Assembly (NCBI RefSeq): GCF_964194025.1
Contig: NC_134476.1
Location: 12,896,001-12,960,000, forward strand
Source: Convolutriloba macropyga
Taxonomy: Eukaryota
Direction of reading: 5' to 3'
Length of the DNA: 64,000 bases
Shown here piece by piece: positions 9,884 to 64,000 of this stretch; position 1 is the first letter of the stretch, and each line of letters opens with the position of its first letter. A program made the position numbers and the translations under genes. The notes under the pieces are model-generated. The model ran no database searches. It worked only from the letters and a program-made list of their open reading frames with translations, and was not told the DNA's origin.

Positions 9884-12800
9884 TGGCAGAGACAGCACTT
9901 GACTTAAGAAAATCTACACTCCATATCGAAGCTTTCTGGGCGAAAGCAACTATCACTCCACCCCTTTCGTGGGAGAAATGGACGCAACAATGGAAACTCG
10001 CATTGTTGGCAAAAGAGGGGATACAACTAGAAACTCTTCTCAACGAACCACCTCCAGAAGTCAGATACCTACACGAACGTGTGTATGAGGAACCAATGGA
10101 AAGCTAGACACAGCAACCGAAAGCAATAGAAATATTCGCAATCAACAACTAAAGGTAACGTGGCAAAACAAATGTAAAAAGATCGACAAAATTGCCATTC
10201 TGTGTGGTAACAATACTTGGGACTTCTGCAACCAAAAGCAACTTCCTTTCTATATCTCTGCGGAACAGAAGGCCGCAGAATATTAAAAAGCAAACAACTG
10301 CATTTCCTCATTGATAAAGTTGGAAAAATCACCGCAAGTTGAATGATTGATTCTGGTACTGTGTAATATCATAACCAAAACTTTGACAAATGACATCCTA
10401 AAAACTACCCCAACAGCACGATGGATTGCTTCAGCATGTGAGAAAGATCTCAAAACATTTTTAAACGAACCGATCAAGGTCCTCGTCAACATTACAACGA
10501 CGGTTGTCTACAACGATTGTATGCGTGGGGATGCATGCCTTACAGTAGTAGAGGATGTCCACAAAAACATCATTGGAAGTGACCTTTTGAGTAGTCTTGT
10601 CTTGGCCAGTGGTTCAAAAACAAGCATAAAGGGGTATGTGTTAACAGTATTGATAACTCTACATGCAAAGTAAAACAGCTTATCGCCTCACAATTTCCAG
10701 ATCTTGTCTCAAGAATTGGCCTTTCAAAGACGCATGTCGTTACATCAAGGTTTTATCAGAAGTTTACAGCAAAGCTTCAAAAAGGTCGTCGTGTTTCCAT
10801 TAATCTACAACCTCTAGTTACTGCTGAATTAGACCGAGTAAAAAAGAACATTGAAAAACTGTCTTGATGTTCTTACCAAAATTTTATTTCGCCTATAGAA
10901 AATTCATTTTGCCTGCAAGAAGGAAAGATCGATTTATAAAATTAGCACAAGATTCCAGTCCTCAACAAATCAATTCATAAAACAAATATCAAATGCCGAA
11001 CATAGAAATGTTAATAGACTCCATTTCACAACACTTAACAAACACACAAAACGGCCAACAAGCATAATTTTCAAAAGTAGATCTTAAATATGCACAGATT
11101 GAATTACGATTATTTAAAGACACTGCAAAACACTGTAATTTTAAAACCATATAAGGCGAATCTACGGGTACAAGTACTATAAAACTGGATTTTACGGCCT
11201 CACATGCCAGCTGAATTTCAAAAAACAATAGACTACGCACGTATTGGTCTTCAAAACTCATACTGGTTTTTAGACGACATCATAATAGTACGGGTTAAAA
11301 TACGACCACATTAATTACGTTATCAAATGTTTTTTTAAAAAACTTAAATGAAGATAATTTGCGCATCAATCTCCAAAGTGTCAATTTGCTTAAACGGAAT
11401 ATGAATGTCTTGGTTATAAAATTACTCAAACAGTAATTTCACCGCTCGAAAGCAAAACTGCATTTATTCGAGCAATACCACCACCAACTACACTTAAACG
11501 TTTAAGGTCATTTCTTGGATCAGTACACTACATTCGCAAATTTATACAACATCTAGCGCATCATTGTCACCCTCTCAGACTATTATTAAAAAAAGACTGC
11601 AAAATACGTTTGGACTGAGTTACATACCAAACGCTTCAATATAATTAAAGAAAAAACAGCACAGTACTAAAAATTGCCATTAAAATCCCAAATTAGATTT
11701 TAGAGTAAAATGTGACGCTTTGCGTTCCAGACTTGACGCAGCACTAGAACAAAACACCCCAGAGGGGTGACAACCTATTGCATTTGCATCGTGTTTTCTC
11801 AATCCTACAGAAAAACGATAAAGCATATATGAATTGGAATTATTGGGAGTTGTAGGGTCAATAGACTATTTCAAATATTACCTTTATGGTAAGGATTTTA
11901 CAGTAATTACAGACCACAGAGCCCTACAATAAATACTTAAAGAACATCGTTCGAGTAAATCTTACAGCAGTGGAATTTCCCGATTGATTGATCGACTACT
12001 CCCTTACAATTTTGCCATATAACACACGCCAGGATCAAAAATGGGTCTTGTAGACTACATCTCTAGCAGTCCTTTTTGCAAAAGCAAAGAAAAATTTATC
12101 ATACATAGAACACTTGGTGGTGCCAACATTTTCTAAAATTCGAGACTCTTTCCAACAACTTATTGAACATAGACCATTAGCATTACAGAAAATACACAGC
12201 AGTCTAAAAAGAATTCACCGAATTCAAAATTAATCAAACCGTTTGCACCGCAAACACCTATATCAAAAAGCAGAAACTTACAACTAAAGAATAAGCTAAT
12301 TTCATCGGATTCACCACATTCTAATATTTCACCGTGAAATGCTTCGCAATTTACACTCTCACATAAGCTCAAAAATCCCAACTTTAACACGCGAATCGCG
12401 TCGAAAATGCCCCCCTCATATTCAAAGTTACAATTTGCACTATATATCTTTCTACTAAAAAATCAAATTCCATTAACAAAATCGCTGCAAATACTGCGCA
12501 AAAGTTAGACAGTAAAGAATAAGAACAACCTGAACAATTAAGCCCCAATTTTGATAACAAATCAACTAATCACCATAAATTCTCTAAATTAGGCGCGAAA
12601 CTCAAAAATTCCATCTATAAAAACCAAGCACCGAAAATTAACTCGCTTTCTGCCCAAAATTCTCTTGCAAACAAGTTCACTGATATCAACTCAATTGCCT
12701 CTACTTCAAAAATGCCTCGAGGAAAATCTTTGGAGACAATACCAACAAAAGCCCGAGTAACCTTCTCGGTTAATTCCCCTACAAATACGACACCAGGCAC

Positions 12801-35023: not shown

Positions 35024-38007
35024 AAAAAATAACTTTGTATAACCCAAGGAGGAGCAAAAACCTATTTTTATATTTTTTTTTTTACAAAAATCGTTTTCAG
35101 CTTACCACTAACACTTCAAGTACAACCAAGAGGCGTTGACAAAGTTGACAAAATTTAATCAGACAAAGGTGGGGATTCGGACAAATATTCTATACTCATA
35201 GCTTTAATGGTGAAACACCAATAAGAACAGTATTATCAGTTGCAACTCTTAAATTCTGCCCGAGAAACTGTTGGGAGTAACCGAAAGCAACTTATATACG
35301 CTGGAGAAAACTACTTGAACGTTTGGTCCAAAACACAAAATACACAAACAAATACCAAGACGCAAACACTAAGACCAGAACCAGAGGACAAAAAATTTAT
35401 TGGTCAATTGGTCACTACTCAAGGATCGTCACTGTTCATTAACGTCTTCTGTTTTCTCTGAGAAACTAGGTGTGGACTTTTTGAGGCTATTATATCGGTA
35501 ACAGTAATTTTGACAATAAACTTTGAAACGTAACTTTTCAATTTCGATATTTCATGAGCACGACGGACAATTAAATTTTTTATATCTTAGAGATGTGTAA
35601 TTAGCGAGAACAAAAATCACATAGTTTTGGCATTAAACATATTTATATCCGCAGTGTGGGGCAAACAATAAGTAATTATTATAATTTTTCTTTCTGACAG
35701 TTTTTGCACTCTGCCTCTATTTGTGTCTAACATTTAAAAAAACCTCTCTCACACTAACTATACCTTTCTCCCTCTCAATACACACTTACTAGTCAAAAAA
35801 AAACAAAACCATGAATATACCCGGACAAGCGCGCGCACGCAAACATACAAACCTCACCAGCACCAATCTTTTTAAAATTTTCAAAATTTGTCACCGTTCA
35901 TAAATGGCTTGACAGTTTTTTTTCGGGAAAACTAGGTGTGGACTTCGGGAAAAAAGAACAGTATTTTGGGTTGCTTATTGACCTACTTGATCATATCGAA
36001 AGTACCATACGACTTTTCACTAATCAAGAAACTTCAAAATCATGGACAAAGCAGGGTCGTCAAACGTTTGAGAGGGCGATAACCCCCATGTGGTAATTTT
36101 TTCAACCCATTTTCTTTACAATTTCAAACTTACACAACTCATTGGAAGTTGTGTTGATTAGATTACGGGTTCATGCCCAACTTTTATCACCATAATGGCG
36201 CTGAAACAGTGGCTTAACCTAACAGGACGGCTCGCGCGAGTCGGTGCCTAGCACAGAATGTTCCAGCACACCTTTGAAGGTTGCAAAAACAACTATCCAA
36301 TTCTGCAAGAGAAACTGTTGGGAGTTTCCGAAAGCAGCTTATATATGTTGGAGAAAATTATTTCCACTTTCGCTCCAAAACACACATTACACAAACTTAT
36401 AGCAACACGCAAATACAAAGCCCAAAACCAGATGATATTTTTATATTTCTATTGGTCAATTGGTCACTATTCAAGGTTCGTCACTGTTTATTTACCTCTT
36501 CTTTGTTTTCTTTCAGAAACTAGGTGTGGACTTTTTGAGTCTATTGTATCGGTAACAAAATTTTTGACACTAAACATTGAAACATAACCTTTCAAAGTTT
36601 CAATTGTGATATTTTATGAGCACGACGTACAATTAAATTTTTTACATCTCAGATGTGTTATCAGCGAGAATAAAAATCACATAATTTTGGCATTAGACAT
36701 ATTTATATCCGCAGTGTGGGGCAAACAATAAGTAATTATTATAATTTTTCTTTCTGACAGTTTTTGCACTCTGCCTCTATTTGTGTCTAACATTTTAAAA
36801 AACCTCTCTCACACTAACTATACCTTTCTCCCTCTCAATACACACATACCAGTCACATAAAAATAAAATCATGAAAATACCCGGACAAGCGCGCGCACGC
36901 AAACATACAAACCTCACCAGCACCAATCTTTTTAAAATTTTCAAAATTTGTCACCGTTCATAAATGGCTTGACAGTTTTTTTTTCGGGAAAACTAGGTGT
37001 GGACTTCTTGAGGCATGTGTATTTCGATAAAATTAATGTAAAATCGGTATACCTTTTTCGATGATTTAGAAAAAAAATTATCGATTCTGATGTTTCATGA
37101 ACTTAATACCCCACTTTTTTTTCAAAAATGCCCAGAAGTGTTAAAAAGATTTAATAAACACATTTTTGTCTCAAAATATTTGAAACATTGTTATTAACTT
37201 AATTTTCTAACTTAAGTAACTTTCTAACTTTTATACTTCTGAGAGTTTTTGCACTCTGTCTTAAGTCATTTTTAACATGTAAAGAAAAGTTGAAAGCTGT
37301 TCGTTAATAACTTTAGTAGCTTTGAGGAAAATTGTTTATCAACAAATTTAATGTTTTGGCCTTCTTACCAAGGAAAATTTAATAAATTGTTTTGATAACT
37401 GAAAAAGTTCTCCAATTACTTCAAAAGAATTTTTCGTTTTTCATAAGAGGAATTTGGCAATCAATGAAATGAATTAGTTCGATTAAAAGAGAATTGTTTT
37501 GCAAACACAGCTCCAGAGTTAGGGAAAGAATACATTTTTCTGATCATAGTTTTACTACAGTTTCAAAGTGTACTTTTGCTATGTTGAAGCTTTAAATTCC
37601 CTGAAATCTTCTACTACTCTTAAATTTTGATACAGCGAAAAAAGGTTCGTGCAATAGCTTTACCAACAGAAAACAGACGGATAAAATTAATTTTTAATTA
37701 AAACTTTAGGAAAAAAACGAAATTCAATTTTTGAACATTTTTCGGGCATATAGTTCAAATTATTATTTTTTAGGCTTTAAACTGTTATGAAATATTGAAA
37801 GGTCCCCATAACTTAAATCAAATTTACTACAAAATTTCTTGTTTAGTTCTATCTCAAACTTCAATGCGATCTGTTACCCCCCCCCCCCCCCCTCACATCG
37901 AGCAATCGTTAAAGAACTAGATCCTGAGGGCTACAAAATAAAGGCTTCCTTTTTTCTAAACAATGCGCTAAAAAAATGAAAATTTGACTGAAGAAAAAAG
38001 CCAGCCT

Positions 38008-38064
<57 letters not shown>

Positions 38065-41000
38065 CTGCATTTTTGAAAAAATGTTGGAACAATGACAAAC
38101 TTAATAATCTAGAAATGTGTAATTTCAACTTTCGCGATCGTTTGGTGTGAATTGGTCATTAACATGACATTCCATCGCTATGTTATGCACCTGCCATCGT
38201 ACAATAAGTCGCAGTTCATTTTAAAATATTTGATATTTGGAATAAGAGCAATTGAGATCATGCGAAAAAATCGAGACCAAAACTATCAGAAATGGTCAAA
38301 TCAGCAACACAACCAACCCATAAAACATAAAAAAATGGTCACAGATTTTGTTCGAGTGACAGTCAAAACGCGAACAATCTAATGCTTTATTTCCTTGGAA
38401 AATTCACTCCTAACACCAGATTTCAAGCTAAGTTTATGCAGGAAAAAAGTTTGTAGTAATCTGAATTATAGTAATTAAGATAGAAACAGAGAATCACTCA
38501 TGTTTGTTCGAGAGCAATTAAAAAAAACTTTCCTTATAAACCAAACAGCTGCAAAACCTCACACTTCACGTACAAAAAAGTGACGTTGACAAAATTGATT
38601 TAATTAGACGAAGGCGGGGATTCAGACAAATATTAAATAATCATAGCTTTGATGATGAAGAACCCCAAAAAGAACAGTATTTTGGGTTGCCTATTGACCT
38701 ACTTGATCATATCGAAAGTACCATACGACTTTTCACTAATCAAGAAACTTCAAAATCATGGACAAAGCAGGGTCGTCAAAGGTTTGAGAGGGCGATAACC
38801 CCCACGTGGTAATTTTTTCAACCCACTTTTACAATTTCAAATTTACACAACTCATTGGAAGTTTTGTTGAATAGAGTACGGCTTCATGCCCAACTTTTAT
38901 CACCATAATGGCGCTGAAACAGTGGCTTAACCTAACAGGACGGCTCGCGCGAGTCGGTGCCTAGCACAGAATGTTCCAGCATACCTTTGAAGGTTGCAAA
39001 AACAATTATCCAATTCAGCAAGAGAAACTGTTGGGAGTTTCCGAAAGCAGCTTATATATGTTGGAGAAAATTATTTCCACTTTCGCTCCAAAACACACAT
39101 TACACAAACATATAGCAGCACGCAAATACAAAGCCCAAAACCAGATGATATTTTTATATTTCTATTGGTCAATTGGTCACTATTCAAGGTTCGTCACTGT
39201 TTATTTACCTCTTCTTTGTTTTCTTTCAGAAACTAGGTGTGGACTTTTTGAGGCTATTGTATCGGTAACAAAATTTTTGACACTAAACTTTGAAACATAA
39301 CCTTTCAAAGTTTCAATTGTGATATTTTATGAGCACGACGGACAATTAAATTTTTTACATCTCAGATGTGTTATCAGCGAGAATAAAAATCACATAATTT
39401 TGGCATTAGACATATTTATATCCGCAGTGTGGGGCAAACAATAAGTAATCATTATAATTTTTCGGACAATTAAATTTTTTACATCTCAGAGATGTGTTAT
39501 CAGCGAGATTTAACAACACATAGCCTTGGCATTGGACATATTTAAATCCGCAAATAGGGTCAAACATTAAATAGTTTTTCTAACTTTTTCTGAGTTTTTG
39601 CACTCTCTTTGTATCCAACATTTTTTCTCTTTGTATCCAACATTTGAAGAAACAATCTCTCTCGTACTAACTATCCCTTTCTCCCTCTCAATACACACAT
39701 ACAAGTCACATAAAAAAAAACACATGAATATACCCACACAAGCGCGCACACACAAACACACAAAACATCACCAACACAAATTTTCAAAATTTCGTCGCAA
39801 TTTATATATGGCTTGGCTTTATTTTCTGGAAAACTAGGTGTGGACTTCTTGACGCATTTGTATTTTGATAATCTAACTTAATCTAAAATCGTAAAAAAAA
39901 TTTTGATGAGTTAGAAAATTTTTTATAAATTTCGATGTTTCATGAGCTTAATCCCCCATTCTTTCCACCCATTCGTTCGTTTCAGAGTTACCCAGACGTG
40001 TTAAAAAATCTATTTAATAATCACAGTTCTGGTTCTAAATATATACGTACGTATTAACTTAACATTCTAACTTTATTAATTCCAATCTTCTGAGAATTGT
40101 TGCACTCTGCCTAAATGTGTTTTCAACACGTAAAAAAATGTTGAAAGCCGTTCGTAAAATTTTTTATTTAGTAGCTTTGAGGACCATTGGTTATCAATAA
40201 ATTTAATGTTTTGGTCTTTTGACTCTGTAAAGAGTATTTTCAAATAAACGGGAAAATTTCATAATTGATAACTGAAAAAGAAAATTTCTCAATTTTCTTT
40301 TATTTTTTGTAAGAGAAATTTGCAATCAATGGAGGATTGTTTTTCAATTTACAAAAACGCCCAAAAACTGAAATTCAGTTCGAAAAGCAATTTCAAAATA
40401 CAAAAGAGAAAAAGTTTCTGATTCTCGAAAAAAAAATATGAACAGGTATTAAATTTTTCAATCTGACAATAAATAAACCCTTTAACTTTCACTTTCGTTG
40501 GTATTTATTTATACCAGAGAAGTTTAGTTCGAACTATCTGCTCGGACATAAGGAAAACAAATGAAGAAGATTACCTTCTTTTTCAACTATGAATTTGGTT
40601 GATTTGATGTTGATTTCATGACACTGTTTTTTAAGTTTCCATGGTTTTGAAAATCTTCAAAATGTTTAGTTCTGATTAATAAGATAATTTTTGGCAAACA
40701 CAACTCTAGAATTTAGAAAAAAATACATTTTTCTGCTTTAGTTTTAGAGTTTCAAAGTTGACTTTTGCTATGTTGAGAGCTCTAAATTGCTTGAAATCTT
40801 AAATTTCTCTAAACTTTTTTGATACAGCGAAAATGGGTTCGTACAATAGATTTACCAACAGAAAACAGAGTGACGGTTAAAAATAATTTTAAAACAAAAT
40901 TTGAAAAAAAAACGAAAATCATTTTTTTGTAAACTTTCGGTCATATAGTTTAATTTGTTTATTTTTAGGCTTGAAACTGTAATGAATTATTGAAAAATCC

Positions 41001-50250: not shown

Positions 50251-50576
50251 AAACTTTGAATTGACGTAACTTATTAAAATTTAAGGTTAACTCTACTTAA
50301 CGCCACACTTCAAGAAATCAAGACGCTGACTGTTTTACTTAAAATAGAGTGACAATCAAAAGATAATAATGAAAGAAAGCAGAACCCAGCGTAAAAGCAG
50401 CGAGCAAAAAATTGAGAACGAGAAGCAGCAGAGAATAGTTAAGGTATTCTAGTGGAAGTATAAGCCGGTTGTGTGACTCCTCGGTATAGGGTCCCTCATT
50501 GAGAACAAAACAATTAAAGCCTCATAGTCTGGTTTGTTTTTTCACTGTCAAATTATAATTGGGAACAATTGTTGTA

Positions 50577-51290
50577 TAGTAGCCACCCGTGCAAAATAGT
50601 CTATGTCTTTGGCTAATTGAGCGTGGTACTTATTTAAAATGCAAAATTAGAAGTTAAGTAGATCAATATAAAGAAAGGTTGGTTTAAATAAAATAGGATA
50701 TAATAGAGTGGTTAGCAATGACGGTAGGTTTAATGTTCAATGAGTGAATTTCATCCTCGCTTTGGTTGGTACCCAATATCAGTTCTATCATTGTGGTAAA
50801 TTAACCAAGTCAACAAAGATATGTCAGTTTTGTTGATTTGGCTCGAAGCCCGGAAACCAGAACTGAAAAGGCTAGAAATGATTTCTTTTTCCGTACATGC
50901 AGACTAGCAAATCGAATAAAAAATACATTGAGATTAATACGAAAAAAGGCCTTAAAAATCGAGTTTTAAATTTCATGTGGAAGTTTGTAAACGAGCGATT
51001 CGACGAAAATAACATCTGTAGCTGGCATCTATGCTGTGACTGTCAGATCTGCAGAAATAATAAGGCAATTTTCTAAGACGACGACTGGGACGAAAATCCC
51101 CTCAGTGAAAACTGTAAATCCCCAACAACAACAACAACAACAACAACAACAACTTTGTCTAATCAAAGGTCTAATTTCTTTTCTGACACCTATCGTTGTT
51201 TTGTCAGCCATAAATCAGGTAATAAATCAAAATTCAAACAAATCTTTAACCTTGAAACCCAAGGTTTTTTAGTACATCTTGACACTCACA
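50577..51290 (-). repeat. 3' LTR of Gypsy B (about 300 bp longer than the 5' LTR; contains (CAA)n at 51123-51152)
   Basis: Aligns to 59437-59878 on both sides of 50853-51152. Confidence 0.9.
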
Positions 51291-51455
51291 CTACCCCCTC
51301 TTCACAAGAATAGAGTGCACCACTAACAAAAAATCAAACTATATTTTTATTCACAGATCTTTTTATATGTATGTCTTACTACACAAAATTTATGTGGTTT
51401 CAAATGGACAGTTTAATTATCAGTTTTCGTTGTTGATTAGTTCAAATATGTGCTC

Positions 51456-52260
51456 TTATCGCGCCGCATCATTTTTCAGAATTTGATATGCCCGGTTGAT
51501 GGTCTTGAAGAACTCTTTGTCTCCACCAACATCAGAGTGCATCAACAGGCACAATTTGTGGTAGTGTTTCTCGATCTTATTTTTTGAAGCTGAACTTTTT
51601 ACCAACAAAATCTCATGTAGGGTTGCCGGCCGGTTCATATTGTTTTTGTTTCCAATCTCGCAGAAACCTTTCTCCGTGGTCTTTGTTTCCGTTTCTAATT
51701 GTAATACGTTGTAGATCAAAGACAGAATCTTTTTTTGGCATTCGTTGGTCAAATACTCGTTGTAGTACTCCAACTGCTCAAGCTCTGACTTCAATGGGCC
51801 ATTCAATTTCACCATTTTTCCGAAGCTTTTTTAAAAGCAGCTTTGACTTTCAAATCGCCCAACTCTTGCATCAATACTTCAATGGATTGCTGCTGATCAG
51901 CATTTCTGGCGGCTGCTGCCTTTAAATTATCTCGTAACGCCTCACACCCGGCGCTCCAATTGCCCTGAACTTCTTTTCTTGCCTCTTTGTTCTTGTTGCA
52001 ATGGTTATCCGGTTCCTGTCAAAGCTCGACGAGGTCTTTTTGAAGTAAAGAGACAGTATTCTTCATCTTCTCTAACTGCGAACACTGCTTCTGCAGTTCC
52101 ACATCACTCTGCAGAGCACGCGGCCGAATATTGGCGGGTGCCAGAAGATCTAACTTAGATATTTTTCGAGTCTGCGACTCACAAAATGCCACTCGGTACA
52201 CTCCCGTGGAAATCTCGGAAACAATTTCCCACAATTCTTGCTAGTAGTACACATATTCAC
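51456..52260 (-). pseudogene. Accessory ORF of Gypsy B: coiled-coil + C-terminal J-domain (DnaJ), frameshifted
   Basis: TLHEILLVKSSASKNKIEKHYHKLCLLMHSDVGGDKEFFKTINRAYQILKNDAAR fits J-domain helices I-IV with HPD changed to HSD; upstream frames are heptad-rich. Confidence 0.8.
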
Positions 52261-52335
52261 TAATCTGTGGAATCTCTTTGCTCGATAAATTGAAAAAAAA
52301 AACTTTTTTCTTCTAAAATTTATCAACATTTTCAA

Positions 52336-52665
52336 TCTTGAACTCAAGACCTTTGCTTTTTTTCCTTCTTTTTTTGGTCTCGAACTGAAGACGTTCTCAT
52401 TTTTTGTTTTTGAACTCAAAACAAATTTTTTTTTGGTTTTTTCTGGTCTCGAATTCGAGGCGTTTGTTTTCTTCCTTTTATTGGTCATGAACTCCAGACA
52501 CTTTTTTTGTTGTTGAACGCGAGACGTTCCCTCCTTTTTTGGTCTTTATCTCAACACAATTTCTTTTCTCTCTTTCTTTCATTCTTTCTCTCTTTCTTTT
52601 CTTTCTTTTTTTGGTCTGGAACTCGAGACGTTTCCTGTCTTCGTTTTAATCTTGAACAGAAGACA
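52336..52665. repeat. Array of about 9 degenerate palindromic units (consensus GTCTCGAACTCGAGAC) with T-rich spacers
   Basis: Units near 52336, 52377, 52407, 52446, 52484, 52510, 52542, 52614 and 52649. Confidence 0.75.
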
Positions 52666-55099
52666 ATTTTTTTTTAAAAAAACTGACTCTTTAAAAGACT
52701 CTTTTTATTAAATCCTTTTCTTTTGATCTCGCCGTTAATTTATAAATCTGAGTAATTGATTTTAAATTCGTGCTCCCGTTACGGGGTTGAGATTCTGCAA
52801 AAGTTGTTGCCAGGACATTCAATTAATAATTAATCCCAAAAAATGAACATTTTAGGAAAATTTTTCACGATTTGAAAAATGAGGTAAACTGTTAAGACTG
52901 ACACAGCAATGTCTTTTGCTTTTAACCAAATGTATAAGCTTTTGGTTTTTAAAATCCGAAAAATTGTTGTTTCATTTAGTAGAAAATTTTTTTGTTTGAA
53001 CTGGTCGTTCCAATGAATAGAATTTTTTATGACTGTTTTTTCCTCCCGAATATTGGAACGCTTCCCGACTTACGTTTTCTACTATTATGGCGAACTTTAC
53101 GAGCAGTTTGACTCTGTTTTAAGTCTAATGTGGAGAAAAGGCTGCGATGCAGGCTTCCATCTCTTATATTTAGCTTACTAATCATCGACTACTGATATAT
53201 CTCACGATTGAATTTCTTCAGCGTTTCTCCATATTGATCATAACTGCCGTCTTCTAAATTGACAATAGTTGGATACAGTGGTTTGCATGCAGCGATTATA
53301 AAATTATGATACAAAATTTTTGTAATAGGGTCCATATATCTAATAAAAGTAAAGTTCTGACCCTCTAATAACACAAGAACTTCTTCTGTGTAAAAAGGAA
53401 TTTTAGTTTTTATTGCTTCCATTTTGGAACATTTAAGAACAAATAAAAAAGATCATGTTTTTTCAACGTGAGAGCATTACTGATGGACTAACAATGTTTT
53501 TTGATATTTCAATCATTGTTTGAATTTTCAGTCCGTGAATTTTGCATTGGAGCTTTCTGATTTTCATATAAAAACGTCCCTCGCTTTGAGAAGTTCGAAA
53601 CTAAAGGTGTCAATAACGCTTGAAAGAAATATATCCGCGGTTATTTTAAGATTACCAGTTTTCGGTTCTATATTTTCCTCGGAGTAAAAAAGAACTGGGA
53701 ATCCGGTTTTTTCACCAGATTTCCACACAAGCTTTTTGCTTATTCCTCTAAGATTTCTAAAGCAAAATAATCATATCTGAGTTTGTGTAAAATTTTTCTG
53801 CTGATAAAAGTGGTCTCGTTGTGATCAATATTTTTGCAGGGACCTCTTCATTAAAGTTTTTTTTAAAGTTTGACATGTTTGCTCACCTTTTCAAGAAAAA
53901 TAGTTAATTAGTCGTCTTCCAAAACTGTGGTTTTGATGAAAAAGATTTTGAGAAACCTAAGGGATACTTAAAATTTAATAGGTTTCTTTGTAGCAGCTTT
54001 CCCCAAATTTTTTCGATGTAAATTTTTGCATTAGTTACCACATTCCACATAAGTTTTCCACTGTAGGTGAAACCCACTCTACAGGCTCCATATACATAGC
54101 GCGATCGCGCCCATTTGTTGCCATGAAGCTTTAACTATGCTCTTTGACTTAAGTTGTTTCGCTGTCCTGTCATTACATCTCTTCAGTTACCAAACTGTTG
54201 ACTTTAAAGGTCCTTTCTCCAAAAACTGGTACGGCAAAACTTTTGTTCTGCCAAACGCTCCTACAAGTTTCCTCATTTACGGGGTATACTGATTTAGGTA
54301 ATCTTGAATTTTCTGTGAGAAAAACGACATCGTCATATACATTTCTTTTTTTAATTTTAGTTCTATCTATGGTTGAACTTCAGCATATATCAAACTACCT
54401 TTTCTATTGTTTTCGATACTAGAATGGTGTTTTCACAGTTTGTACTGTGATCTAGAGAATAGATCTTTGTTGATACGATATTGTCAAAATAATAGCTGTA
54501 TAGCTTGATACAAGGTGATGGAGAACCAAAATGGCTATCAATGATGCAATCATAGGGATACTCCATCAAACGATGCAACGGATGAACTCGTCTTTCTTTT
54601 TGATTCCATTATTTCTTTCTGAATTTTTCTGATACAAAAATATCATCATTTTCGTGACTGCAAAATTACTCACCATCTTGCTCAGTAAGATAATTCTGTA
54701 ATTTCTCAGGCACCGATTTTAATCGGCTCCTATACCTTGTTGCCATTTTTGGTGCCTTTGGATCACTTTTAATCTTTTCTTCAGTACTTTTCGTTTTAGT
54801 AGTAGATCCTTTTTTGGTATTGGAATTTTAGTTTCTGCTGCTTTTTTTCTTTGTAGGTTTTAAGAAAATGCACCTCCTCCCTCGGTATTTTGTTTAGCTT
54901 CTCTTGCTCTTTAGAGGTTTCTTGCTCTGATTCGTTAGAGTCATTCTGAGACTTTTCATTTGTAAAAATTAGTGAATCTTTAGAATACCTACCTTCAGAT
55001 TGATTTTTTGTGTTTAGATTACCTTCACTGTCTGCGGTTGATTCTATTCCGAGTATATCATCATCATCTGAGCTGTTCAAATTGATATTTTTCCGCTCC

Positions 55100-58000
55100 T
55101 CAACTATTGTTTTTCGTTTTGCCTGAGGCTCAGGCGTGAATGGTTTTTCTCATGTTTTTCATTTTTTCAGTTGGTCAAAATGGACGTTAATTATTTTCCT
55201 CATCTTTTTATCTTCTACCTTGAAATTCTACTCGTTTATAATTTCAACTATTTTGTATGGTCCTCTACTGAAAGAAGTAACTTTTCTTGTCTCGACTTTT
55301 TTGACCCTTTGGTAATAAACTAACAATTCTTCTCCAACTTCATAGCTCAGTCCATACCTACTGCAATCATACTAGGTCTTCTGGCGTTCTTGTTTGACGT
55401 CCATAAATGCTGGCATCAAATGATGCGTTTTCTGTAGTTTCTGTCTGAATTTGAAAACACAGTCACTTGGTGTTGTTATATTGCTGTCTGTAGTGTGCTA
55501 TAGATGCAGTCTTTAGGTAGCAACAGTGGAAAACCCAGGATTACATATGCTGGGCTGTAGTTTGTTACACTCTTGATTGATGATCGATAGGCCATTATTG
55601 GTAAAGGTTGAAATTTGGTGCACTCATGTTGATATTGGCCTATGTATTTGGGGAGACAATATTCTATTGTTCGATATGTTCTTTCAATCATCGCGTTCCC
55701 TTGTGGTTGGTAGGAAGTTGTTGTTTGTCTCTAAAATCTTAATTCAAAGCAAAGGCACAGGTCACAGCTTTATATTCAGTTTCTTACGTCCCCTCTCATG
55801 CGCTGCCGATTAAACCTTTCACAGGCCCTTTGCCATGTTTTCTCAATCCCAAAGTGAATTGCGCTAGGAGAGTCATGCAACAGCTCAAGCACATTGGACA
55901 CTCTCTCCCATGGTACAAGCATTTGGTAAACAGTCTCAAAGTTGTGTTCTGTTTGAGTTTTCCGATACAAAATCCCTTCTATGAGACAAAAATTTGTATA
56001 CTGAATACAGTATTTCCATGAATGATCAATTTGATGCTCAATTTTTTGTTTGCGGTGTTTCCGGCATTTTTTAAGCACCCAGGAGTATATTTCTTTGAGT
56101 AACCTGTCATTTTGTTGCAAATCTTGCAGTTTTACTCTCTGCAGTTTGTCTAACTGCCAACCTCATTTACCATAGTCGTATTGTCTTGCCCTGCGTCCAT
56201 GGAAATAGCGTTAACAAAAGCTGTTTGTTCATCATCTTCTGTGTCTATGCGCAGCAGACAGTCGACATGTGGGATTTTTTTGCCTCCTCTATGCTTGATG
56301 TCAAAGTTAAATTGACTAACCTCTTCAATTCATCTTGCAAGCATACAGTCTAACTCTTCAAAAATATAGATCTAGACAAGAGCCCGATGGTCAGTTACAA
56401 TTGAAAAACGCTGACCAAGTAAAAAGTTTTTAAAATGTCGCGGAAAATGAACGATTGCAAATAATTTCCGCATAGTTGCTGAATAATATTGCTGAATTTT
56501 ACTCGGTGCTTTGCTAGCATATGCAACAACTCTATCCTCCGTTCCCTGTCGTTGGTTAAGAATTGCTCCAATTCGTGTCAAAGAAGCATCCGTAGTTAAT
56601 GTATTCGGACCCCTATCATGTGGATATCCTAAAACTGGGGCTTCCAAAAGCTTCTTTTTAAACTTCGTTACCGCACTTTTGCACTCTGTACTCCATTCAA
56701 AATTTCTTGACCTATTCATTAAACTGTACTGAGATTCTGCTCTTTTTCCGGAATCTGGAACAAATTTTAGATAATAGCTACAAGGCCTAAAAACGCCCTG
56801 ACGTCTTTCAGGGAGGATGCTTCTTTCATTCTTTCCACCGCTCTTACTTTCTCTAGTTCGACCTCTACTCCACTTCCGGATATAATGTACCCCAAGAAAC
56901 TGACACGCTTTTGAAAAAAATTGCATTTTAATCCCTTAATATTTAATCCATTCTCCTCTAAACGACGGAGAAGCAGTTCTAATCGTTTCAGATGTTCGTC
57001 CAAACCATAACGTCATCTAGATACACCAGAGCCATCTAAATACACCCGAGCAAAAGCCGTCATCAAAAATTAACTCCATTAGGTTTTGAAAATCTCCCGG
57101 TGCAAACGCTATTCCCTTAGGAAGTCTCTTTCATTTATAGGGTCCCAGAGGCGTTATAAAAGCTGTTAAATTCTGACAATCTTCCTCGAGCGCCATCTGA
57201 AAGTATCTCGGTAAGATATCTATCTGCGGGAAGTAGATGTTTCACTCCAGTGAATCAATAACCTCATTAGATCGTGGCAAAGGCAGCATGTTTTCTATAT
57301 TTTTTGTTCAGACAAAGATAGTCTACAACCAAGCGATAGGTTCCATCCTTTTTTGGTACAAGTAATGATGGTGCTGCCCAATCGGAATGTTTGTTTCTGC
57401 TTGTTGTGTTTTGTTACCTTCCTTATCAACAATTTTGCTTTTAATGAAATCTTCGCAGTGACGAACTAAATCGTGAACCTCTGCACCAATTAAAAACTGA
57501 TTCTTATAACTTCGTTGTGATAGGGACAATTGCAATATTTTCCCAACTTTTCCGCAAAGGAATTCGTTTTTCTGAGGTATAACATGTCAAAACTATATAA
57601 GAAATCCCTGACCAAAAAACAAGGCGTTATCTCAATTTTGGTCAATAGAAACTCAACTGTTATCTCAGTTGTAAATTTTTGAAGTTGGACTTGATTAGCT
57701 GTTGACCTCTTCACAGGCATTTTTTTAATGCTGGCAACTTTTATTCTTTTCCATACTCTCATCTGGCTCGGTTCTCCCAATTGCTGGTAGAATGTGTCGC
57801 TTGAAAGATTAACACTACATCCTCTATCAAAGAGGGCCATTACCAATTTAGCTTGTATCATTATTTTCGCAAACAAAGCCTCAACTGGGCTGTTTCCACC
57901 ACGCAAAATTTTTGCGTAGCTAGCTGAAAAAGAAACCCTGCCATCTTCAGCTAGTTCCCATTTGAATAAGGGCAATTTTGTATGGAAAAGTTTGGATTCC

Positions 58001-58958
58001 CGCATTCAAAACAATTCTTGCATTCCTAAGATGCATGATTTTGCTGACCGAAACAGCGACATTATTCGCTCTCAAAACTCGCCGCTGTCTTTGACTAATT
58101 AGCACTACTCTCGTGCGACTGATCTCGGCTTCTGTTCTCGCCTCTTGGTGTTCGCATTCTACTGTAAAAATTGGTTCGTCTATTATCAGCTTTGCTTCTG
58201 TCATAGCTATTATAGTTTCTATTTCTATCTCGTGTTTCTCTTGAAATTCTCTCACTTCGGCGCAGAAACTCTTTTGGCCTCGCCCCTTGCGATGAAAACT
58301 TTTGATTATCTTGCCTGTTAGATTGGTTAATCTGCAATGTTTGCACTAAATCATTAATCGATTTAACTACTTTAGTTTTTCCTCCTCCGCGGCTCGTTAC
58401 CCTTCTCCTCAATTCTCGTGAACGCTCCAATATGTAGTGGTCTTTCTAAAGCTTTATCTAAAATCATATTTGCGTCACCCAATTTTTTTCTCAGGTTGAG
58501 CCGCACCTGACTGCTTTCCATGCCTTCGAGGGATCCCCTCAAAATGAAATGTTCTTTTTTTCATTAGACTCTTGAGGGTAAGCTTTCAAGGATTAAGTTT
58601 TCAAATTACCGAGAAAATCTGTTAAATTTTCACGCGGCTGCTGGACTCTTCTAGCTAGCCTTCCGCGAAAAATTACAAGTTTCTCATTATAATGTTGTCT
58701 GAAAGCTTTTACGGTCTCCTCATGGCTCTTCCTAGTGCCCTCCAAAAGTGTTTGATAGAAAACAATAGTAGACTTTTGTAGCCTTAACACAAAATAAAGC
58801 GGCCGTTCATCCTTTTTGGTTTCGTCGCCGTCTACGGTTTCTTTTATTTGCCCTTTCTGAAGTTGTGGCAAGAACTCAAAGTGTGTAACATAAGTTTGGA
58901 AATCATTTCTATCCTTAAAAGGCTCCGGTAACCGCGTTTTTGAGGATTGCGGCGCCAT
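55100..58958 (-). pseudogene. Gypsy B gag-pol (Gag with CCHC knuckles, PR, RT, RNase H, IN), disrupted
   Basis: ORF fragments from 58593-58958 down to 55476-55691 in Gypsy domain order. Confidence 0.93.
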
Positions 58959-59436
58959 CAGTGTTTTAATTATAAGCTGCTGTTATTCCAATTCTTTCTA
59001 TAAATATGTTTGAAAACCGAACTACTCTTTGACACTCTAACTCAGCAGGCCTTGAAATTTTTTGACACTGTATTTTTTTTGAAAAAACTCAAAAAATGCG
59101 AGGTTCAGTTGTGTATTTTTAGTCAAATTATATCGAATTGAAGTACGTCTGATTTTAGACGCTATATTATTATCGAAAAAAGATGTGCGGACCGATTTAC
59201 ACCATTCAAAGTTTTAGGGGATAATCACTTGAAAGTTCAAAGTTTGCAATTTTTCTTGTCGAATCCGGACACCAGTTCAGATTTCTTCTTTCGGGGCGTG
59301 ATGTTAAGACGTCAGACTCGTGTCGAAAGTTGATTTTCAAACAGAAAAAAGATTATAGATTTCTTTAGAAATCAATACAATGCTTAATTTTATTGATTGA
59401 GTGTTTTCTATTTATCTTTAATATCTGTCGCCACTA

Positions 59437-59878
59437 TGGTAGCAGGCGTTTTGCAATATCTATGTCTTCGGCTAGGTATTTTGAGCGTGGTACTTGTTTA
59501 GAAGGCAAAGTCAGAAGTTAAATTTTTAAGTAGATCAATGTGAAGAAATGTTGGCTTAAACGAATTAAGATATAATCGAGTGGTTAGCTCTGATGATTGC
59601 TTTGATGATCAATGAACGAATCTAATCCTCGCATTGTTCGATACCCAATATCAAATCTATCATCGTGGTAAATTAACCAAGTCAACAAAGATATGTCATT
59701 TTTGTTGATTTGGCGCGAAGCCCGAGTTTTGTCTTATCAAAATTTTATTTTTTTTCTGACACCTATCAACCTTTTGTCTGCCATCAATCAAATAAAAAAC
59801 CATGTTTTAAACTAATCACTAAACCCTGAAAACCGATATTTTTTATTACATCTTTTTTTCATACGTGTGACACTCAAA
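59437..59878 (-). repeat. 5' LTR of Gypsy B
   Basis: Shared blocks such as TTGAGCGTGGTACTT and GTGGTAAATTAACCAAGTCAACAAAGATATGTCA; adjacent to the PBS. Confidence 0.9.
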
Positions 59879-60039
59879 GTTGTACTTGAAAAAAATATAT
59901 CAACTCGAATGAGAAAACATATTTTTGTGTTTCGTGCAACACTAAAACGCGCTCAACGCAAGAATGTAGTGCCACATCCAAAATTGATTGCAAAATGACC
60001 GATCATAAATTGCTCAAAATTGAATCAAACTGCTTCCTA

Positions 60040-61500: not shown

Positions 61501-61884
61501 ACCAGAAGGTTTGCTACGATTAAAAGAAAATGAAATGCGCAAATATCGTTCTCAACAGAAGAAATTATATTTATTCTGGTGATATGCACTGTGCATAACT
61601 TTGTGCATTCTAAAAAAGTAACAAAACACCGGAAAGGGACCTGCTCTGGGCAGTAGTCCGATAAAAGCTAGAGGCCCAACAATAGACACAGATATTGCTA
61701 GTATAAAACGAATAAAGAACGAAATCTGAACTCATACTAGAACCAGGTATCGAAGAATTTCTTTTTTGTTAACGAAACCTTGAGATGATATTTGGAACGT
61801 TTTAATTATATATCGTCTGCACAAACATGATCAACAATAAAACCATTAGTAATCATGTAATTCAACAGAGCGCATCCTCTCCTG

Positions 61885-64000
61885 GCTAGCATATGCAGTA
61901 ACTCTGTCCTCCATTCCCTGTCTTTGGGTAAGATTTTCTCGAATTCGTGTCAAAGAAGCATCCGTAGTTATTGTATTTGAACCCCTATCATGTGGATATC
62001 CTAAAACTGGGGCTTCCAAAAGTTTCTTTTTAAACTCCGTTACCGCAATTTTGCACTCTGTACTCCATTCAAATTCTCTTGACTTATTCAGTTAACTGTA
62101 CAGAGACTCTGCTGTTTTTCCGAAATCTGGAATAAATTTTCGATAATAGCTACAAGGCATAAAAAAGCCCTGACGTCTTTCAGGGATGGGATGATGCTTC
62201 TTTCATTCTTTCCACCGCTCTTACTTTCTCTAGTTCGACCTCGACTCCACTTCCGGATATAATTTGCCCCAAGAAACTGACACGCTTTTGAAAAAAATTG
62301 CATTTTAATCCTTTAATATATAATCCATTCTCCTCTAAACGACGGAGAAGCAGTTCTAATCGTTTCAGATGTTCGTCCAAACCATAACGTCATCTAGATA
62401 TACCAGAGCCTTCTAGATACACACGAGTAAAAGACGTCAGCAAAAATTAATTCCATTAGCTTTTGAAAAGCTCCCGGTGCAGACGCTATTCACTTAGGAA
62501 GTCTTTTTCACTTATAGTGTCCCAGAGGCGTTATAAAAGCCGTCAAATTCTGACTCTCTTCCTCGAGCGTTGTCTGAAAGTATCTCGGCAAGATATCTAT
62601 CTACGGGAAGTAGAGGTTTCACTCTAGTGAATCAATAACCTCATTAGATCGCGGCAAAGAGGAGCATGTTTTCTCTTTTTCTTTTGTCCAGACAGAGATA
62701 TTCTACAATCAAGCGATAGGTTCCATCCTTTTTTGGTACAAGTAAAGATGGTGCTGCCCAATCGGAATGTGTAAGTTCGACTAAGTCGTCTCATTCAAAC
62801 TCTTTAACAATTTTTTCATAGCTTCTCTTTTCTCAATTCTCATGCTGCCTTATGTACGTCTGAATGGCACAGCGTCCTTTTTGTTTAAAATGATAAATTT
62901 GCGACAATATTACTTCAGATTTTGTGCAAAGTGACCTCACTTTTGTCATTTCGTCACAACAGAAATTCATTGAGTTTGCGTTCACTTGCTTCTAAAATCG
63001 AATTCGTCTATATATTTTGTATTATTGTTAGGGTCATTTTGCTTTATTCTTAAAATTTTTCAATGTTTTCCGCATAAGCGATTCACGCCTTTTGGTGAAC
63101 TTTCTTTTGTTCTAAGGTAGGGTTCAGAACTCAAATATATACGACATCATTAACCATGTCACTCACCGATCTCGTTAATAGAAAATGTGATTAGTCTTCA
63201 AACTCTTTCATTCGCTCAACAACAATTTCTGCTTGTTGTGTTTTGTTACCTTCCTTATCAACAATTTTGCTTTTAATGAAATCTTCGCAGTGACGAACTA
63301 AATCGTGAACCTCTGCACCAATTAAAAACTGATTTTTATAACTTCGTTGTGATAGGGACAATTGCAATATTTTCCCAATTTTCCGCAAAAGAATTCGTTT
63401 TTCTGAGGTATAACATGTCAAAACTATATAAGAAATCCCTGCCCAAAAAACAAGGCGTTATCTCAATTTTGGTCAATAGAAACTCAACTGTTATCTCAGA
63501 TGTAAATTTTTGAAGTTGGACTTGATTAGCTGTTGACCTCATCACAGGCATTTTTTTAATGCTGGCAACTTTTATTCTTTTCCATACTCTCATCTGGCTC
63601 GGTTCTCCCAATTGGTGGTAGAGTGCGTGGCTTGAAAGATTAACACTACTTCCTCTGTCAAAGAGGGCCATTACCAATTTGTCTTGTATCATTATTTCGC
63701 AAACAAAACCTCAACTGGGCTGTTTCCACCACGAAAAATTTTTGCGTAACTAGCTGAAAAAGAAACCCTGCCATCTTCAGCTAGTTTCCGTTTGAATACG
63801 GGCAATTTTGTATCGAAAAGTTTCGATTCCCGCATTCAAAACAATTCTTGCATTCCTAAGATGCATGATTTCGCTGACCGAAACGGCGACATTATTCGCT
63901 CTCAAAATTTACCGCTGTCTTTGACTAATTAGCACTACTCTCGTGCGACTGATCTCGACTTCTGTTCTCGCCTCCTGGTGTTCGCGCTCTACTGTCAAAA
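61885..64000 (-). mobile_element. Second, truncated copy of Gypsy B (end of gag, PR, RT, start of RNase H); runs off the window
   Basis: High similarity to 56513-58167 (shared MDEHLKRLELLL... ORF); has ~455 bp (62771-63225) missing from the first copy. Confidence 0.95.

Follow-up and report, generated by a model that had tools for sequence, protein, structure and literature searches.

A J-domain gene behind env in Ty3/gypsy retrotransposons of Convolutriloba macropyga, encoding a predicted Hsp70 adaptor

Introduction

Retroelements are usually thought to borrow the chaperones of their hosts. A J-domain bearing the HPD motif binds and stimulates Hsp70, and in polyomavirus T antigens the J-domain is N-terminal, with origin-binding and helicase domains behind it. 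In the accessible parts of previous reports, the phage RB43 J-domain protein (JDP) is a viral J protein that works through Hsp70 (PMC3486835), and gB-type env genes have been described in Ty3/gypsy elements across animals, the "ancient errantiviruses" (Chary and Hayashi, eLife, PMC13524379). The portion available on bdelloid retrotransposons with long terminal repeats (LTRs) describes third open reading frames (ORF3s) for a GDSL esterase and a DEDDy exonuclease (PMC5408684), and additional ORFs (aORFs) are likewise described, in the sources as available, for plant LTR elements and Cer1 (CERV). In the present study, we analyzed a stretch of 64,000 nucleotides from Convolutriloba macropyga (contig NC_134476.1, forward-strand positions 12,896,001 to 12,960,000; hereafter the window), which holds an old, decayed Ty3/gypsy element on the minus strand at 59878-50575. 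The family of this element carries a fourth gene, ORF4, which encodes a J-domain and lies between an envelope-like gene (env) and the polypurine tract (PPT).

Results

ORF4 in young copies of the element

The J-domain frame of the window was used to search the genome (1.18 Gb). It gave 1245 first-look candidates, and all of the 150 that were scored matched, which is not a copy number; a search with the DNA of window positions 53189-55100 gave 559 candidates with 40 scored, again not a copy number. The first sample of this family (family A) comprised 20 high-ranking J matches picked for long open frames. Fuller or further loci were added, and 20 lower-ranked J matches were taken to lessen the bias to intact copies.

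Young family-A copies had the order LTR, gag, pol, env, tandem-repeat spacer, ORF4, PPT, LTR, with LTRs of ~430 nt (TG...TA), a gag of 343 aa, an env of 666 aa and an ORF4 of 285 aa from the first ATG, or ~308 from stop to stop. At the 11 loci with both LTR ends in view, the LTR pairs were 97.3-99.8% identical, and a 4-nt target-site duplication (TSD) was present at 8. The 3' LTR stood behind ORF4 at 19 of the first 20 loci; the remaining one stopped a few bases beyond the PPT. Since env sequence lay upstream at 20 of the 20 lower-ranked loci and LTR sequence within 1.2 kb downstream at 18, ORF4 is a fixed part of the element family and not a nested insertion. The latter had been raised in the preliminary description, which was made from the DNA letters of the window; it was ruled out, as the J region had no termini of its own in view and the order env-ORF4-PPT-LTR was recurrent.

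At several loci (L141, L083, L024 and L146), the ORF4 region was duplicated in tandem, in some cases together with the spacer or the LTR.

A second family with ORF4

A PF00226 search of the genome gave 910 candidates, of which 150 were scored, with many matches in 283-aa frames. Of 20 loci retrieved, a host DNAJC2-like gene accounted for one and a second Ty3/gypsy family (family B) for the other 19. Family B has LTRs of 617 nt, a single gag-pol frame of 1682 aa, an env of 686 aa and an ORF4 of 280 aa before the PPT. Its env lay upstream at 18 of the 19 loci and its pol at 17, the two exceptions carrying a family-A insertion. ORF4 occupies the same slot in both families, between env and the PPT. 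The identity between A and B was 77% in reverse transcriptase-RNase H (RT-RH), 54% in pol, 30-32% in env and 27-30% in ORF4. The best PDB matches of the family-B RT were 4ol8 and Ty3-G 7q5b (E 1e-85), with the RTs of caulimovirus, foamy virus and murine leukemia virus behind; by these matches, the RT is closest to the Ty3-type RT among solved structures. The Ty3/gypsy hallmarks were present, namely the LTR pair, the TSD, the primer-binding site (PBS), the PPT and the order protease-RT-RH-integrase (PR-RT-RH-IN), the last from Pfam on open frames of both families.

Other env-carrying LTR families of this genome (loci L091-L105) have post-env ORFs of their own, including a 611-aa coiled-coil frame, RING-like frames, a 284-aa low-complexity frame lacking an ATG and two short paralogous-looking frames.

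Domain architecture of the ORF4 protein

The preliminary description had proposed an ORF with a coiled coil and a J-domain, and this was borne out: window frame 51830-51459, preceded by coiled-coil coding sequence, scored 43.2 bits on PF00226 (cut-off 27.8), and the family-A and family-B proteins scored 60.4 and 52.0 bits. HPD, located between helices II and III, was found at 29 of the 31 family-A loci besides the window (QPD and HHD once each) and HPDKGG at 19 of 19 family-B loci; these tallies come from loci found by J-domain searches, many picked for open frames, and lean to intact copies. The window copy reads HSD and has six frame-shifting indels in ORF4 relative to a young copy, which is consistent with the decay of this copy suggested at first.

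An AlphaFold model of family-B ORF4 (8 sequences; predicted local distance difference test, pLDDT, 80) showed four N-terminal strands, a helix at residues 59-196 (~140 residues) and then the J fold. The J part fits solved J-domains in both structural and PDB sequence comparison. In the model, residues 1-54 form a small beta-barrel, which matched PWWP 6kco with Z 8.2 and a root-mean-square deviation (rmsd) of 1.8 A over 53 residues, and the SMN Tudor domain with Z 7.9 and an rmsd of 1.4 A over 49. The best structural matches of the barrel were Royal-family folds, with the Tudor domains of SMN, ERCC6L2 and TDRD3 at Z 7.5-7.9. Overall, the matches (Z 7.5-8.2, rmsd 1.4-1.8 A, 49-53 residues) represent a good local fit with Z near the caution range of the tool, and the Pfam scan of ORF4 gave no Tudor or PWWP match. 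ORF4 is by its hydropathy a soluble protein, neither membrane-bound nor secreted, because the maximum was only 0.54; it has no signal peptide and no membrane stretch. Atlas searches returned sub-0.8 matches or none, and no named protein matched the barrel-coil-J combination in the searches made.

The likeness to polyomavirus T antigens noted in the preliminary description held for the short HPDxGG loop and went no further. The J-domain of ORF4 is C-terminal, Pfam detected no origin-binding or helicase domains, and no T antigen occurred among the 45 PDB matches.

Selection on ORF4

Private ORF4 variants were neutral, with ratios of nonsynonymous to synonymous polymorphism (pN/pS) of 1.14 in family A and 0.99 in family B, as expected of decay after insertion. 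For variants shared by at least two copies of family B, pN/pS was 0.30 (16 nonsynonymous, 19 synonymous; Fisher p 0.002, or p 0.011 without CpG sites). By part, the shared variants of family A gave 0.13 for the barrel (p 0.0013), 0.21 for the J-domain (p 0.022) and 0.62 for the coiled coil (p 0.13).

The ratio of nonsynonymous to synonymous divergence (dN/dS) was then compared among the genes by simple counting, which gives mutually non-independent estimates that include neutral decay. Between a young copy and two older-subfamily copies, dN/dS of ORF4 was 0.23 for one and 0.21 for the other (0.14 for the J part in both), compared with 0.32 and 0.36 for pol and 0.40 and 0.38 for env; against the older subfamily, ORF4 was thus as low as, or below, pol and env. 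The window copy gave 0.35 for ORF4 (J part 0.21) and another old copy 0.41 (J part 0.32), and pol ranged over 0.32-0.40 and env over 0.38-0.63. The ORF4 values lay at 0.14-0.41 in every pairwise comparison, whole ORF or J part, and so below one, the outcome looked for in the preliminary description. As judged from these ratios, ORF4 is under purifying selection.

At loci L041 and L044, synonymous divergence from young family-A copies was ~0.6 in ORF4, compared with 0.23-0.32 for env and pol. This may hint that the 3' module was recombined or that the rate differs locally.

Homologues and the J-domain tree

A profile of A and B, followed by a wider profile, was run against 1.84 billion representatives. 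Barrel-coil-J proteins 28-35% identical to A or B were found (P0065, P0072, P0075, P0081, P0088 and P0228-P0234); these are known from protein sequences alone, and none of the outside barrel-coil-J relatives carries a protein name. When P0065, P0081 and P0086 were searched against the host genome, no close match occurred among the 150 scored candidates each (best 50%, 43% and 44%), and the three relatives therefore probably come from other organisms. In nine distant homologues the H and D of the HPD motif were invariant, and the motif was whole in all rows but one. The 20 members of cluster P0232 lie on long contigs, and seven of the eight members of cluster P0228 lie on contigs equal in length to those of a P0232-like protein. 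This pattern suggests that the two clusters may be one dispersed element with two divergent ORF4 paralogues. No locus emerged when metagenome contigs were scanned for P0232 and viral contigs for P0002.

A J-domain tree was built from 33 rows (2 element, 10 relative, 11 host and 10 generic J-domains; the window copy and P0136 left out), at 70 residues too short to name a donor. The element and relative J-domains formed one clade with an ultrafast bootstrap (UFBoot) of 100, apart from the host J proteins. Compared with 11 host J-domains, the identity of the A and B J-domains did not exceed 34-38%, and with unnamed short-loop DnaJ proteins it did not exceed 47%. Given the low identity to the sampled part of the host J proteins and the separate clade, a recent capture of a host DnaJ was not supported.

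The envelope-like gene and predicted expression signals

The gene upstream of ORF4 belongs by Pfam to PF24664, a chuvirus-type fusion glycoprotein family, with 41.6 bits in family A and 52.8 bits in family B (cut-off 27). Family-A env has five N-glycosylation sequons. By hydropathy only, it has a hydrophobic stretch at 10-39 and a C-terminal membrane-like stretch at 589-607, borderline at 1.51; in family-B env the threshold was passed solely at 586-614. The alignment to another, better-scoring env from this genome was weak (481 columns, probability 20%, E 0.001). A word-index search that used residues 200-620 of env gave no homologue at E<=0.001, env had no match among PDB sequences, and its AlphaFold model (pLDDT 29) was unusable for fold comparison. 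The env itself is ordinary, because gB-type env genes are already described in animal Ty3/gypsy elements in the available text of PMC13524379; the gene behind env is the finding.

In both families, sequence inspection alone revealed an AA/GTGAGT donor-like site in the leader ahead of gag, a T-rich AG directly before the env start and an AG directly before ORF4, the latter two being predicted acceptors. In family B, an ATG follows immediately behind the AG that precedes ORF4. The first ATG of family-A ORF4 is not conserved in the older subfamily or in family B, and translation in family A may begin at a non-AUG codon or at a start that splicing supplies.

The copy in the window

The anatomy of the window copy was corrected by mapping the natural, unbroken proteins of young copies onto the window (Table 1). 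The Gypsy element described earlier was recovered within its LTRs, with CAAC at both ends, the PPT at ~51303-51291 and the GPY motif near 55260. The region behind the integrase had to be redrawn: in place of several ORF relics, it holds two genes, env and ORF4, and not four relics. The supposed acidic/basic extension (55080-54612) is the C-terminal tail of Pol, and the unknown relics together with the 77-aa ORF (53422-53189) fall inside the single envelope-like gene, which has 17 frame-shifting indels relative to a young copy. The statements that env hallmarks were lacking and that the J gene sits in the slot usual for env did not survive, as the PF24664-positive env lies before the J gene.

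Table 1. Coordinates of the element and its parts in the window
Feature	Position	Strand	Remarks
Target-site duplication CAAC, upstream copy	59879..59882	-	4 nt
5' LTR	59435..59878	-	decayed
Primer-binding site	59424..59433	-	complementary to 3' end of host tRNA-Ser(GCT)
Leader splice-donor-like site	59223..59230	-	predicted; decayed here, AA/GTGAGT in young copies of both families
gag	57954..58958	-	frameshifted; young copies: 343 aa, CCHC knuckle
pol	54612..58023	-	PR-RT-RH-IN, GPY, acidic/basic tail
env-like gene	52681..54609	-	broken here; PF24664; 666 aa in young copies
Non-coding spacer	52292..52680	-	~40-nt A-rich tandem repeats, family A only; ~20 nt here in family B
ORF4	51420..52291	-	predicted Tudor/PWWP-like barrel, coiled coil, J-domain; broken in window copy
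ORF4 N-terminal beta-barrel	52112..52291	-	Tudor/PWWP-like, predicted from family-B model
J-domain	51440..51620	-	HSD at 51539-51531 in window copy; HPD in family
Polypurine tract	51291..51303	-	position unchanged in young copies
3' LTR	50575..51290	-	~300-nt insertion at 51153-50853
Target-site duplication CAAC, downstream copy	50571..50574	-	4 nt

In its alignable parts, the LTR pair shared 81% of 271 nt and 77% of 128 nt. The pol has internal deletions of ~490 nt at 57395 and ~300 nt at 55753, and its fragments match RT, RNase H and integrase families in Pfam. The insertion in the 3' LTR (50853-51153) contains a (GTT)n run, and part of it matches the flank of locus L019 at 94%, so that the insertion probably represents a small repeat in its own right. 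At 61882-64000, a further gag-pol piece of this element is 91-96% identical to 56513-58164, a far closer match than that between the LTRs of the window element, and is likely a later local duplication. At loci L040 and L047, the PBS matches tRNA-Ser(GCT) for longer than it does in other copies, as though a larger part of the primer had been copied. Genes of the tRNA-Ser(GCT) type form a large tandem array, with ~59 pattern matches, at G000:C10:2701276-2806465. Elsewhere in the window, an unrelated plus-strand RT/RNase H remnant lies at 11322-12055, and a cluster of direct repeats of ~1-2.7 kb at 35243-40138.

Discussion

These results indicated that ORF4 is almost certainly a functional gene of the element. 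The functional reading is supported because the slot, the HPD motif and the frame are kept in families A and B despite ~30% identity of ORF4. By analogy with other J-domain proteins, ORF4 probably recruits host Hsp70. In the proposed mechanism, ORF4 would be expressed from a spliced subgenomic RNA, for which the leader donor and the AG acceptor just before ORF4 are predicted. The HPD loop would stimulate host cytosolic Hsp70, as is expected from the J-domain family, the coiled coil may oligomerize, and the barrel may select the client. The soluble barrel-coil-J protein would then act as an adaptor through which Hsp70 reaches the client that the barrel picks out. That client could be the element's own ribonucleoprotein, with Hsp70 helping to assemble or open the Gag/Pol-RNA particle, an assignment we make tentatively.

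Several observations weigh against this reading. No result names the client, and the modeled Tudor-like barrel would suit a host chromatin or small-RNA target equally well as the element particle. Other env-carrying families of this genome (15 loci, RT ~30% identical) had no match to the ORF4 of either family, and because they are without ORF4, env-carrying elements do not in general need a J protein. For family A as a whole, pN/pS of shared ORF4 variants under an 80% identity filter was only 0.57 (31 nonsynonymous, 20 synonymous; p 0.039, or p 0.19 without CpG sites); the count without the filter gave 0.22, since two older-subfamily copies were then included. The shared-variant test of the coiled coil was non-significant in both families (p 0.13 and p 0.22), in family-A ORF4 the first barrel strand is not preceded by an in-frame ATG, and the HPD tallies carry the lean to intact copies given above.

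The choice of client is where the alternatives diverge. Tudor proteins and Hsp70/Hsp90 co-chaperones take part in PIWI-interacting RNA (piRNA) pathways, and the barrel might dock on host piRNA or chromatin silencing complexes, so that Hsp70 would remodel or dismantle them or be diverted from Argonaute loading. The Royal-family folds at the top of the structural matches (PWWP 6kco at Z 8.2, Tudor domains at 7.5-7.9) would fit such counter-defence, as would the barrel being the clearest case of shared-variant constraint in family A. However, Pfam gives no Tudor or PWWP match, a Z of ~8 is in the range that the tool calls a possibly common arrangement, and generic binding of RNA or protein is likewise a property of small SH3-like barrels. 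In addition, the barrel appears conserved and not fast-evolving, unlike many counter-defence proteins, and we consider a silencing target rather unlikely. Hsp70 might otherwise be aimed at a host regulator of the cell cycle or stress response, making the cell permissive as polyomavirus T antigens do. The short HPDxGG loop of T antigens is shared by ORF4, which is a free-standing, soluble accessory gene just ahead of the 3' LTR. In the part of the RB43 report available, the phage JDP stabilizes a host heat-shock factor (PMC3486835). Against a T-antigen-like role stand the lack of any T antigen among the 45 PDB matches, the C-terminal position of the J-domain, the absence of the other T-antigen domains in Pfam, and the fact that no host client is indicated; we judge it quite improbable.

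Env itself could be what ORF4 serves, through aid to its folding, trafficking or loading into particles, given that ORF4 stands behind env in both families with a predicted common splice donor. Without a signal peptide or membrane stretch, however, ORF4 would have access to no part of Env but its cytosolic tail, and other env families do without ORF4, which makes this role very unlikely. Finally, a host DnaJ piece might have been captured once and carried without function. Such a passenger is largely refuted already and highly improbable, as dN/dS was below one in every pairwise comparison, frame and HPD are kept across 30% identity, and the element J-domains form their own clade (UFBoot 100) at no more than 34-38% identity to the 11 host J-domains. 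What would fit a passenger is the weak within-family signal for family A and the coiled coil, the unclear start of family-A ORF4, and two of eight relatives inspected that depart from HPD (one NPD) or are shortened, as in decayed copies.

If the preferred reading of ORF4 as a selected, element-encoded J protein is true, some retroelements bring their own Hsp70 adaptor. ORF4, small and soluble and with its HPD loop as an internal negative control, would then serve to probe which step of the cycle or which host defence needs directed Hsp70. Env-carrying Ty3/gypsy elements can be four-gene "complex" elements, and surveys for gag, pol and env would leave the fourth gene unannotated. In its widest form, an old, widespread env-carrying lineage would encode an Hsp70-targeting adaptor (Tudor-like reader, coiled coil and J-domain) from a second spliced RNA. 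This would be the first retroelement-encoded co-chaperone and an accessory gene in the style of complex retroviruses in invertebrate Metaviridae, possibly directed against piRNA or chromatin silencing, with two paralogues per element in another species; we regard this full picture as possible but somewhat doubtful.

Comparison with known systems

No retrotransposon-encoded J-domain was described in the literature searched; Repbase, Dfam, subscription journals and bioRxiv supplements lay outside the search and could hold an annotation. The DnaJ mention in the accessible part of PMC9004415 is the name of a host gene and no element J-domain. By its sequence features, the carrier is a member of Ty3/gypsy that would work like the gB-type env-carrying elements. 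In common with the elements of Chary and Hayashi, as described in the available text (PMC13524379), it has the order LTR-gag-pol-env, a Ty3/gypsy pol, a tRNA-Ser primer site, many near-identical copies and an env of the chuvirus/gB-like class, assigned here by Pfam PF24664 alone; unlike them, it has a fourth gene between env and the PPT. An extra selected gene in the 3' part is also a feature of the LTR elements with additional ORFs, but ORF4 comes on top of env and is a co-chaperone module, and a J-domain is not named for those elements in the text at hand (PMC5408684).

ORF4 resembles class C J-domain proteins (DNAJC type) in that an HPD-bearing J-domain is fused to unrelated targeting modules with no glycine/phenylalanine or zinc-finger region; it differs in that the barrel-coil-J combination has no named match and sits inside a retrotransposon. 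With the J proteins of viruses, such as T antigens, ORF4 shares the possession of its own HPD-bearing J-domain with a short HPD(K/A/Q)GG loop, and the phage RB43 JDP belongs to the same comparison as far as the accessible report goes (PMC3486835). Those carriers are DNA viruses, whereas ORF4 resides in a retroelement, has no sequence match to T antigens, and bears its J-domain at the C-terminus, behind a Tudor-like barrel and a coiled coil.

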